Origin: an uncultured Planctomycetaceae bacterium
GTDB taxonomy: Bacteria > Planctomycetota > Planctomycetia > Planctomycetales > Planctomycetaceae
Assembly (NCBI GenBank): GCA_963813715.1
Contig: CAWFAK010000016.1
Coordinates: 448,001 to 512,000 of the forward strand
Length of the DNA: 64,000 nt
Direction: 5' to 3'
How positions within the stretch are numbered: position 1 is the first letter of the stretch; each line of letters begins with the position of its first letter. The position numbers and the translations under genes were made by a program. The notes below the pieces were generated by a model. The model was not told where the DNA came from. It did not search any database and saw only the letters and a list, made by a program, of their open reading frames with translations. Positions 52,601 to 55,855 of the stretch are shown here, piece after piece.

Positions 52601-52681
52601 ACGCCCGGGACGGGACACGTTGTTTCACCGAGAAAACGCCGAAGAAATTGGCCCTCACCCCGACCCTTGTATGTTGAAAAA

Positions 52682-52900
52682 AGATCAATCTGCGCATTTG
52701 ATGGTGACAGCTGTGGGAAGGCTTGCGAAGCGTAGCGAAGCAAGGTTTCCCACAGCGGCCGGCGGTAGATCGTCCGCCCTCAGGTCCAAGAAGACCGTGG
52801 GAGAGCTGGATCGCCGCCGGTCTCATGAGATCAGCCCGAACAGCCGTCAGAGCCGTCGTGGCGCCAGTCGCCGCTCGAGCTCGCATTCGCAAGGACGGGA
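52682..52900 (+). ncRNA. putative bridge RNA of IS110 copy 1
   Basis: 5' hairpin 52710-52756; target-binding loop with GTCCGCCCT (52772-80) and TGGGAGAG (52798-805); donor-binding loop with ACAGCCG (52840-46) and GCAAG (52889-93). Confidence 0.75.
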
Positions 52901-52907
52901 CATCGTC

Positions 52908-53860
52908 ATGGACGTCGCCTTCAAATCCTTCGTCGGTATCGACATCGCCAAACGGACCCTCGACGTGCACGTGCTGCCTGAGCGAACGTCGCTCAAGCCG
53001 CCAAACGATTCCAAGGGCCGCCAGCAACTCCGAGAGAAGCTTCCTCCTCCCGGAGAGTGTTTGATCGTCGTGGAAGCGACCGGCGGTTACGAGCGGGCCC
53101 TCGTCGCCGAACTGATCGACGCGGGCCATCAGGTTGCGGTCGTCAATCCGCGGCAAGCCCGGGACTTCGCCAAAGCCTGTGGAATCCTCGCCAAGACCGA
53201 TCGGATCGACGCGGCCGTGCTGGCACGCTTCGGGCAGGCCGTCGTGCCGCGGACCCAGACCAAAATCCCGGAAAAACAGCTCGAACTGCAAGACCTCGTC
53301 GTCCGCCGCCGGCAGCTCGTCGAGCTGCGAACCGCCGAAATGAACCGCAAAGAAAACGTCGCCAGCAAGTTTGTTAAAAAGAGCCTTCAGGAGAGCGTCG
53401 ACGCGCTCACCAAGCAGATCCGACGCTTCGAGAAGCGAATCGCCGCGCTGGTCCAATCGGACGACGAGTGGAAACAGAAGGCCGAGATTGTTCAAAGCGC
53501 GCCGGGGATTGGACCGGGCACGAGTGCAACCCTGATCGCCGAGGTCCCCGAGTTGGGGAAGCTGAGTCGACGAAAAATCTCCGCACTGGTCGGCCTGGCC
53601 CCCTTCAATCGCGATAGCGGCGAGTTCCGAGGACGCCGCGCGATCCGCGGCGGCCGAAGTTCGGTGCCTGTAGCCTGTACATGGCGACGCTCAGCGCACG
53701 ACGCTCCAACCCAGTCATCAGAGCCTTCTCGGATCGCTTGAAAGCCCTCGGCAAAAAACCCAAGGTCATCATCACCGCCTGCATGCGCAAGCTGCTGGTG
53801 ATCCTCAACACGATGGTCAAAAACAACACGCACTGGAACCCTGCAATCTCAACCACTTAA
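52908..53860 (+). CDS. IS110-family DEDD transposase/recombinase (consensus 317 aa; 1-nt deletion near 53668)
   Basis: [55 protein letters not shown]. Confidence 0.93.
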
Positions 53861-53884
53861 CTCTTGAAAAGAAACACAGCCGCT

Positions 53885-54561
53885 CTCCCATCCGCCGAAG
53901 CGGACGGGAGAGGGGGAAAGATTGGAGGTAGATTGGGGTTTCGGGTCCCCGGGCCTGCGCTGCGCTCCGACCCAGCTGCAGCTGTCGCGCTCCGTTGGGG
54001 CTGGAGTAGAGCGGGACGGGACACGAACGCATTGGGACTCCGGAATGGCCGCGGCGCGCGAGTGCCACCCGAGCCGACTGGTCAAGAATTGTCTGGTGGG
54101 GATCTTGCTCCCGCCGGGACGCAAAAGGATCCCCGGCGGTGATGGGGATCCTTTTTCACTAAGCGGAGAAAAGATCCCCGGCAGCCGACGCCGAGCCGAT
54201 TGCGGACAGTCCAAGTCCGGTCCGGACACTTTTCGAGCGGGACCCGCGGGACGGGACACGTTGTTTCACCGAGAAAAGCCCGGAGAAAGTGGCCGTCACC
54301 CATCCGAGGCGGACGGGCGAGGGCGAAAAGTGGGACGGGACTCGAACGGTAACGGGTCTCGTTTCGTAGGGTGTCGACAAGGCCGCCTTGCGGCCGCAGG
54401 CACACCATTTCTTCCCGGCCGCTCTAGAGAAGGAGTCCACTGGGGATGGTGGGCCGGTGCCCCGCCTGGCGGGACTGGTCCCACCCCAGGGATTGGGACC
54501 GGTGGGACGGGACTCGTTGTTTCACCGAGAAATGCCCGAAGAAATCGACCCTCACCCCGAC
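53885..54561. repeat. repeat-rich spacer between the IS copies, including an uninterrupted repeat unit at 54248-54344
   Basis: GGGACGGGACWCG at 54013, 54248, 54332 and 54504; GGGGATC(C)TT / AAGATCCCC inverted repeats at about 54098-54180. Confidence 0.75.
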
Positions 54562-54577
54562 CTTGTATGTTGAAAAA

Positions 54578-54796
54578 AGATCAATCTGCGCATTTGATGG
54601 TGACAGCTGTGGGAAGGCTTGCGAAGCGTAGCGAAGCAAGGTTTCCCACAGCGGCCGGCGGTAGATCGTCCGCCCTCAGGTCCAAGAAGACCGTGGGAGA
54701 GCTGGATCGCCGCCGGTCTCATGAGATCAGCCCGAACAGCCGTCAGAGCCGTCGGGGCGCCAGTCGCCGCTCGAGCTCGCATTCGCAAGGACGGGA
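54578..54796 (+). ncRNA. putative bridge RNA of IS110 copy 2
   Basis: same as copy 1 apart from one substitution seen (GTCGTGG versus GTCGGGG) outside the guide segments. Confidence 0.75.
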
Positions 54797-54803
54797 CATC
54801 GTC

Positions 54804-55756
54804 ATGGACGTCGCCTTCAAATCCTTCGTCGGTATCGACATCGCCAAACGGACCCTCGACGTGCACGTGCTGCCTGAGCGAACGTCGCTCAAGCCGCCAA
54901 ACGATTCCAAGGGCCGAGGGCAACTCCGAGAGAAGCTTCCTCCTCCCGGAGAGTGTTTGATCGTCGTGGAAGCGACCGGCGGTTACGAGCGGGCCCTCGT
55001 CGCCGAACTGATCGACGCGGGCCATCAGGTTGCGGTCGTCAACCCCCGACAAGTCCGCGACTTCGCCAAAGCCTGCGGAATCCTCGCCAAGACCGATCGG
55101 ATCGACGCGGCCGTGCTGGCACGCTTCGGGCAGGCCGTCGTGCCGCGGACCCAGACCAAAATCCCGGAAAAACAGCTCGAACTGCAAGACCTCGTCGTCC
55201 GCCGCCGGCAGCTCGTCGAGCTGCGAACCGCCGAAATGAACCGCAAAGAAAACGTCGCCAGCAAGTTTGTTAAAAAGAGCCTTCAGGAGAGCGTCGACGC
55301 GCTCACCAAGCAGAATCCGACGCTTCGAGAAGCGAATCGCCGCGCTGGTCCAATCGGACGACGAGTGGAAACAGAAGGCCGAGATTGTTCAAAGCGCCGG
55401 GGATTGGACCGGGCACGAGTGCAACCCTGATCGCCGAGGTCCCCGAGTTGGGGAAGCTGAGTCGACGAAAAATCTCCGCACTGGTCGGCCTGGCCCCCTT
55501 CAATCGCGATAGCGGCGAGTTCCGAGGACGCCGCGCGATCCGCGGCGGCCGAAGTTCGGTGCGCTGTAGCCTGTACATGGCGACGCTCAGCGCACGACGC
55601 TCCAACCCAGTCATCAGAGCCTTCTCGGATCGCTTGAAAGCCCTCGGCAAAAAACCCAAGGTCATCATCACCGCCTGCATGCGCAAGCTGCTGGTGATCC
55701 TCAACACGATGGTCAAAAACAACACGCACTGGAACCCTGCAATCTCAACCACTTAA
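54804..55756 (+). CDS. IS110-family DEDD transposase/recombinase, copy 2 (+1 near 55314, -2 near 55395)
   Basis: same motifs as copy 1; indels fall at different positions than in copy 1. Confidence 0.93.
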
Positions 55757-55855
55757 CTCTTGAAAAGAAACACAGCCGCTCTCCCATCCGAAGCGGACGG
55801 GCGAGGGAGAAAGACTGGACGGGACGCGATCGACCCGGTAAGCGATCAGCGGCGC

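Follow-up and report, generated by a model that had tools for sequence, protein, structure and literature searches.

How did two copies of an insertion sequence (IS) come to occupy the same position within members of one repeat family, and why does a third member lying between them carry none? The question arises in a stretch of 64,000 nucleotides from an uncultured Planctomycetaceae bacterium (hereafter the window; G000:C16:448001-512000, with coordinates below given as window positions), in which the head GGGACGGGAC marks the starts of three repeat units at 52607, 54248, and 54504. An original prediction had placed the units at these positions and had units 1 and 3 interrupted exactly at a CT dinucleotide. 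Both statements are confirmed, and CT lies directly on both sides of each IS. We consider it very likely that both copies are IS110-family ISs inserted into a CCCTCACCCCGRCC-CT-CTCCC hairpin repeat at its CT core and that each was placed by pairing of its own bridge RNA with the site. The observed part of this answer consists of IS110 recombinase domains, a 240-nt leader that folds, the flanking CTs, and an empty unit 1 with a single CT in a sister species (G002) and in metagenome contigs. To compare relatives, we searched 41 genomes and read 17 stretches of relatives for junctions.

The three units belong to one repeat family. All share the head sequence GGGACGGGACWCGTTGTTTCACCGAGAAA; across head stretches of 63 nt, identity to unit 2 is 84% for unit 1 and 86% for unit 3. 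Unit 1 reads ...CCCTCACCCCGACC-CT (52666-67), IS (52668-53882), and CT (53883-84)-CTCCCATCCGCCGAAGCGGACGGGAGAGGG. Its left part (52607..52667, plus strand) comprises the head GGGACGGGACACGTTGTTTCACCGAGAAA.., an A-arm CCCTCACCCC, the left target GACC, and the left CT core (52666-52667), and its right part (53883..53914, plus strand) comprises the right CT core, the right target CTCCC, and a hairpin CTCTCCCATCCGC / GCGGACGGGAGAG(GG). Unit 3 reads ...CCCTCACCCCGAC-CT (54562-63), IS (54564-55778), and CT (55779-80)-CTCCCATCCGAAGCGGACGGGCGAGGG. Its left part (54504..54563, plus strand) has the head, the A-arm, a left target ..CCCCGAC with one C missing, and the CT core, and its right part (55779..55807, plus strand) has the CT core, CTCCC, and a hairpin ..ATCCGAAGCGGACGGGCGAGGG. 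The left flank of unit 3, GAC-CT, has one C less than the GACC-CT of all other copies, and genome-wide counts of CCCTTGTATGTTGAAAAAAG (8 occurrences) versus the right junction (9 occurrences) are consistent with the missing C. We attribute it to a later loss of 1 nt in a run of C because the IS copy in this unit has several other indels.

The sister species retains the locus (flanks with 91% identity and an adjacent porin gene with 95% identity), and its unit 1 is empty. There, the unit reads ..GGCCCTCACCCCGACC-CT-CTCCCATTCGCC.., and alignment to the window breaks exactly at 52667|53883; at the orthologous junction, ..CCCCGACC-CT-CTCCCATTCG.., the left part runs straight on across a single CT. 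The CT core proposed in the original prediction is therefore exact. Contigs of metagenome run X1 join 52665 to 53883, skipping 1,217 nt, which correspond to the IS and one CT, with two letters shared at the joint, and a 328-nt contig of this run follows the unique right flank (53883-54152; 270 nt) with one difference. Such contigs are evidence of presence only, and the X1 library was made from RNA and may include DNA. Other metagenome joints with short sides (19-46 letters) were taken as derived from other copies of the repeat and set aside. Together, the empty site in the sister species and the X1 joint fix the boundaries of IS copy 1 and the 2-nt core, and place the insertion into unit 1 after the species split, with the insertion polymorphic in nature. 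The core occurs once in the empty site and twice around the IS, and target duplication is limited to CT. Unit 3 together with its IS is absent from the sister species, and the indel is bounded by repeats of GGACGGGAC; the repeat units themselves come and go. The orthologous region of a more divergent relative, G003, was set aside as evidence on units 1 to 3 because it is too divergent to bear on them.

The two IS copies in the window are in direct orientation and 1,896 bp apart. Copy 1 (52668..53882, plus strand) runs from TGTATGTTG.. to ..ACACAGCCG and copy 2 is at 54564..55778 (plus strand). Both are 1,215 bp in length, intact copies being 1,216 bp, and the loops of the bridge-RNA region of copy 2 are the same as those of copy 1. 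The window copy encodes an N-terminal DEDD (RuvC-like) domain (PF01548, DEDD_Tnp_IS110; 1.4e-25, 90.3 bits, cut-off of 29), one of 18 matches to PF01548 in the genome, and a C-terminal domain (PF02371, Transposase_20; 9e-11, 42.4 bits, cut-off of 21.3). The intact 317-aa form, P0001, passes the NCBIfam model NF033542, "IS110 family RNA-guided transposase" (225.6 bits, cut-off of 140), and matches the transposase of IS621 (8wt6; E of 1.8e-42) and, likewise, that of ISCro4 (E of about 2e-42). The Ser-Gly in ..FNRDSGEF.. aligns with a Ser-Gly of the ISCro4 transposase, and we take the serine to be the catalytic one. By these sequence-level tests, the element is assigned to the IS110 family.

The genome has nine copies of the element, with 94-99% identity to copy 1 of the window, and three of the nine, those at C16:392269, C8:67984, and C5:1086650, keep the 317-aa frame. 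Both transposase genes in the window are broken. That of copy 1 (52908..53860, plus strand) has a 1-nt deletion after 53667 and stops after 277 aa (53739-53741); contigs from all four metagenome runs compared have the extra G behind 53667, so the frameshift is private to copy 1. That of copy 2, with an ATG at 54804 (plus strand), has several indels and a first stop after 208 aa (55428-55430). The window copies would thus be mobile only with recombinase supplied by one of the three intact copies. When the ends are joined on a circle, TTGAAA of the right end and TATGTT of the left end are 17 nt apart and form a predicted junction promoter, as we read it; among the metagenome joints listed, none was a circle junction. 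A second and more distant IS110-type family is also present in the genome, with eight DEDD-domain matches of about 50-60 bits (C5:1486446, C5:644703, C7:435712, C7:224538, C12:90580, C7:43041, C12:9691, and C8:47057).

Across the nine genome copies, insertion sites follow one pattern. The right junction is CAGCCG|CT-CTCCC in every copy, with a right side of 7 nt common to all, and CT flanks both sides of all nine. The left junction is CCCTCACCCC(G)RCC(C)-CT in eight of nine copies, and GGG(A/C)GAG follows within 38 nt 3' of the insertion in eight of nine, the exception being copy IS5, where the loop is longer. Copy IS3 (C16:392269-393477, minus strand) has the usual right side and a left side of ..GTGTCCCGTCCC-CT; it is in the opposite arm of the hairpin, read on the other strand, and its site reads as a near-cognate one within the same repeat family, excluding an unrelated context. 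In the sister species, all five copies are at CT-CTCCC of the same hairpin family with the same junctions. Copies in unrelated contexts, which the original prediction had named as the observation that would speak against it, were not found among these copies (9 of 9 here and 5 of 5 in the sister species are in the hairpin family). Nor is the common site a matter of chance: the IS copies share 94-99% identity, against only about 85% for the units around them.

The target module can be written as CCCTCACCCC..CC-CT-CTCCC..GGGNGAGGG. Copies IS7 and IS8 are in hairpins without the GGGACGGGAC head and therefore the target is the hairpin module and not the whole unit. Hence, of the prior proposal that the element targets a unit like a repetitive extragenic palindrome (REP), the repeat family stands and the whole unit does not, as the placement of IS3 in the opposite arm also indicates. 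There are 57 hairpin sites, spread over many contigs: 48 intact ones with an A-arm and a 3' arm are empty, including 14 with CCCGGCC, the commonest left target, and nine are occupied. The arms, CCCTCTCCC.. and ..GGGNGAGGG, form a short, imperfect, dispersed palindrome. A link to a REP-associated tyrosine transposase (RAYT) was not found: among eight Y1_Tnp matches in the genome, one has the 10-mer of the head within 1.2 kb and none has either arm motif. The target is REP-like only loosely, in that it is palindromic and dispersed over 57 sites, without a RAYT link.

How could the element find this module? The 240-nt leader is predicted to fold into a 5' stem-loop followed by two stem-loops with internal loops (minimum free energy of -106.7 kcal/mol; z of -3.87), and an alignment of seven relatives has compensatory changes at 14 of 51 consensus pairs. 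The 5' stem-loop of the predicted bridge RNA (52710..52756, plus strand) is drawn from the fold, the compensatory pairs, and inverted repeat I6. The predicted target-binding stem-loop (52757..52821, plus strand) has a 5' loop GUCCGCCCUCA (52772-52782) with a left target guide (LTG) UCCGCCC at 52773-52779, and a 3' loop GUGGGAGAGCUG (52797-52808) with a right target guide (RTG) GGGAGAG at 52799-52805. The RTG is the reverse complement of CT-CTCCC at 7 of 7 positions. The predicted donor-binding stem-loop (52835..52899, plus strand) has a 5' loop AACAGCCGUCA and a 3' loop GCAUUCGCAAGGA (52883-52895). Its left donor guide (LDG), ACAGCCG (52840-52846), matches the final 7 nt of the IS exactly (7 of 7), and its right donor guide (RDG) is the CAAG of GCAUUCGCAAGGA, which is complementary to the left-end CT-TG, the only contiguous pairing there. 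This strandedness follows the geometry of IS621, in which, according to PMC11208160, left guides pair with the bottom strand, and hence resemble the top strand in sequence, and right guides with the top strand. By analogy with IS621, the bridge RNA of the element would base-pair with the hairpin site and steer insertion, the second loop (ACAGCCG, CAAG) would hold the joined IS ends, and the recombinase would exchange strands at CT.

Relatives provide cases in which guide and flank change together. An RTG of GGGAGAG is paired with CT-CTCCC in the genome analyzed here and in the sister species. In two other relatives, G004 and G010, the RTG is GGGUGAG and the flank is CT-CACCC in 4 of 4 cases (three in G004 and one in G010; L018-L020 and L028), with the guide readable in two of these four copies as the other two are 5'-truncated. 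CT-CACCC is the neighboring arm of the same repeat, and we read the pair as a natural retargeting by one base; the element in G004 is 86% identical. The element in G003 (68% identical) has loops AUCGUGC-CU and CACUAAG, and its site, TTCGTGC-CT|CT-T(T/G)GTGG, is a different palindrome. Matched changes also occur among elements of the G003 type, with an LTG of ..GUGU alongside a left target of ..GTGT (L026 in G002) and an LTG of AUGG.. alongside a left target of TTGG.. (L027 in G010). These joint changes in relatives lead us to regard guide-directed targeting, that is, RNA-guided choice of site by the element, as apparently well supported. The original prediction's IS621-like, guide-directed targeting of a repeat family thus finds backing in both the complementarity of the loops and the co-change of guides and flanks. 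For copies L021-L024 and L036 of the G003 element, the target palindrome reads ..CACCAAGG..CTTGGTGCCTT(C/G)GTGG.., and an apparent empty target of this type, CTTGGTGCCTTCGTGGTT, is in the G003 region orthologous to the intergenic stretch of the window.

Several points weigh against this account, most of them on the side of the left guide. In the register set by homology, as in the G003 element, UCCGCCC is compared with left targets CCCGGCC, CCCGACC, or CCGGCCC, and matches at 5 of 7 positions by Watson-Crick pairing or at 6 of 7 when U·G is counted; UC stands in place of CU at the two core positions. Shifting the register by one base, to GUCCGCC-CU, makes the core perfect but leaves only three contiguous pairs to the left target (GCC), and the left-target match is worse in G004 too. 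We prefer the homology register and retain the shifted one as an alternative. In each register, the sole site with a perfect match to the left guide is empty (C5:1119115 for homology and C5:599021 for the shifted register). Moreover, copy L017 of the sister species (G002:C4:778366-779574) has a left guide, UUGACCC, that fits a CCGACCC variant of the repeat, represented by six empty sites in the genome analyzed here, although its own site is CCCGGCC; either the insertion was off-cognate or the guide is in transition. No Rfam family matched over the element at threshold. The tabulation of occupied versus empty sites against guide complementarity, suggested in the original prediction, is favorable in one respect: at least 6 of the 7 left-guide positions are matched (wobble allowed) in 7 of 9 occupied sites, versus in 40 of 718 non-IS CT-CTCCC sites. 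In another it is not, as the perfect left-match sites are empty, and because sites of a repeat family are not independent, p-values are only descriptive.

The imperfect left pairing also enters into a different explanation, in which the recombinase chooses sites mainly by recognizing the hairpin, through shape or protein-DNA contacts, and loop complementarity is secondary. Occupied sites keep the A-arm in eight of nine cases and the 3' arm in eight of nine, and a preprint on ISPpu10 of Pseudomonas putida reports that the target stem-loop is an added determinant. Occupancy also differs between hairpins with the head (6 occupied and 7 empty) and those without (3 occupied and 41 empty; Fisher 0.0027, with small numbers and nonindependent sites). 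Recognition of this kind is nevertheless difficult to reconcile with the single A-to-U change in the right guide that, in G004 and G010, comes with a change of T to A in the flank, or with the G003 relative, whose quite different palindrome is matched by its own loops, and we regard it as improbable. Structure may supplement pairing, for which it is no substitute. Still less probable, in our judgment, is that the window copies are not independent insertions and that a single block of unit plus IS was duplicated or moved in. The absence of unit 3 and its IS from the sister species, as an indel bounded by GGACGGGAC, and the direct orientation of the copies 1,896 bp apart are as expected of a block. 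But the copies are about 98-99% identical when the flanking halves of units are about 85% identical, each copy has private frameshifts, and unit 1 is empty in the sister species and in metagenome contigs, so at least the IS in unit 1 was a separate insertion.

Unit 2 raises the second part of the question. The unit (54248..54323, plus strand) reads GGCCGTCACCCATCCG AGG CGGACGGGCGAGGG, that is, the shared head and then a hairpin with a single arm, CCGTCACCCATCCG-AGG-CGGACGGGCGAGGG (54293-54323). As the original prediction described, it lacks the target and carries no IS; CT-CTCCC is missing and the core position is GT. Two independent metagenome contigs span 54259-54399 and 54259-54395 with no differences, so unit 2 is not an assembly artifact. 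Its ortholog in the sister species is also single-armed (GGCCGTCTCTCATCCG) with GT at the core, and that species has no IS at the locus; the form is common to both species and is therefore older than their split. Compared with the long form, 12 nt are missing from unit 2; they include the left target, core, and right target and equal one period of the quasi-tandem repeat CCCTCACCCCGA / CCCTCTCCCATC. The loss probably occurred by slippage between these 12-nt quasi-repeats before the species split; alternatively, unit 2 may represent a form that never gained a second arm. Either way, it has nothing for the guide to pair with and cannot be a target. That unit 2 might instead be a scar, left by imprecise excision of this IS that removed left target, core, and right target, draws on proximity: by our own reading of the genome listing, there are only two true fusions of A-arm to loop, unit 2 itself and the one at C5:1209572, each with an IS copy no more than about 250 bp away, and a short unit with only a T-arm (C5:1121096) is about 230 bp from IS7. 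Yet IS copies cluster in repeat-rich regions anyway, the 12-nt period fits slippage, and the single-armed GT form predates the species split at a locus where the sister species has no IS. In addition, excision of IS110 elements is scarless according to PMC11208160, or transposition is copy-out and leaves the donor intact according to a preprint. We consider a scar extremely improbable. Thus, where an immune allele or an excision scar had been proposed, unit 2 is indeed not targetable, but the scar does not hold. Since 48 intact sites are empty too, the emptiness of unit 2 is itself uninformative and needs no special explanation.

A second determinant, local hopping, or the tolerance of repeat arrays for insertions could account for the higher occupancy of hairpins that bear the head. 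This higher occupancy is also one strand of a wider scenario, a small arms race between repeats and ISs, which we consider unlikely. Sister IS lineages would re-aim between adjacent arms (CT-CTCCC and CT-CACCC) by one guide base, the GGGACGGGAC head would act as a guide-independent gate that raises insertion about sixfold, and units would escape by loss of an arm plus a GT core, a form kept in two species. The head module itself, GGGACGGGACWCGTTGTTTCA (52607-52650, 54248-54290, and 54504-54546), has 48 exact copies in the genome with many different tails, and the 10-mer GGGACGGGAC occurs about 353 times, or once per 21 kb. The module looks mobile or recombination-prone in its own right because unit 3 is an indel relative to the sister species and is bounded by GGACGGGAC.

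The units are in a gene-poor stretch of the window between an ORF with HEAT repeats (ending at 51848) and the porin gene that is conserved in the sister species. The latter, on the right side of the array (55856-57289, minus strand), codes for a beta-barrel porin of the BBP7 family (PF07585, 1.2e-84), which is typical of planctomycetes. Upstream of unit 1 are further palindromes (52513-52584 and 52429-52478), with GGTCCAAAGTCCAATGTC / GACTTTGGACTTTGGACC being 94% complementary and TGGGTCACGAATTT / AAATTCGTGACCCA a perfect pair of 14 nt; the motif GGTCCAAAGTCCAATGTC / GACTTTGGACTTTGGACC recurs beside copies IS5 and IS6. Sub-threshold Rfam matches to sX15, a small RNA of Xanthomonadaceae, are on the minus strand at 52746-52860 and 54639-54791, antisense to the target-loop region in both IS copies. 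With scores of 25.3 and 24.6 bits versus a gathering score of 55, we rejected sX15 as an identity and treated the matches as chance; that sX15 itself overlaps an IS110 leader would be a guess.

Insertion of ISs into dispersed palindromes has precedents. REP elements have reportedly been described as targets of ISs by Tobes and Pareja in 2006 and Choi et al. in 2003, and ISPpu9, an IS110 element of P. putida, is said to be found in REP sequences. Like REP elements, the repeat here is a short imperfect palindrome with many dispersed copies and is a specific IS target. In contrast to them, no RAYT link was found and the copy number is modest (48 empty and 9 occupied). The element resembles IS621 of Escherichia coli in its homologous recombinase (8wt6, E of 1.8e-42), its CT core, and the lack of duplication beyond the core. 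It also resembles IS621, as described in PMC11208160, in a 5' leader with target- and donor-binding loops, the same guide strandedness, and insertion into a palindromic repeat. It differs in that the target is a GC-rich hairpin of two arms, CCCTCACCCC..CCCTCTCCC..GGGNGAGGG, and not the E. coli REP ATCAGGCCTAC. Furthermore, the right guide pairs over 7 nt (core plus 5) in contrast to the 4-base RTG of IS621, and longer right guides are reported for some orthologs in PMC11208160. The left guide matches at only 5-6 of 7 positions with core positions UC, and the element here is known from sequence alone. ISPpu10, as described in the preprint, is a similar case of a multicopy IS110 element with all copies in one conserved intergenic palindrome. 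In contrast to ISPpu10 and ISPpu9, insertion here is in the 5' arm of the hairpin with the remaining stem-loop 3' of it, and a role of structure or head is only hinted at by the occupancy counts.

It is already in print that IS110 elements target palindromic repeats and that guides covary across the family. The case is ordinary in this sense: it follows a known habit of the IS110 family and reveals no new mechanism. It is of value as a tidy example from nature of targeting by a bridge RNA beyond the well-studied elements of proteobacteria: the sister species has the exact empty site, environmental data include a polymorphic empty allele, and a one-base change in a guide accompanies a one-base shift in target between arms of a repeat. 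With a long right guide, a short or imperfect left guide, and core positions that do not pair in left guides, the element and its relatives may serve as a set for testing guide rules.

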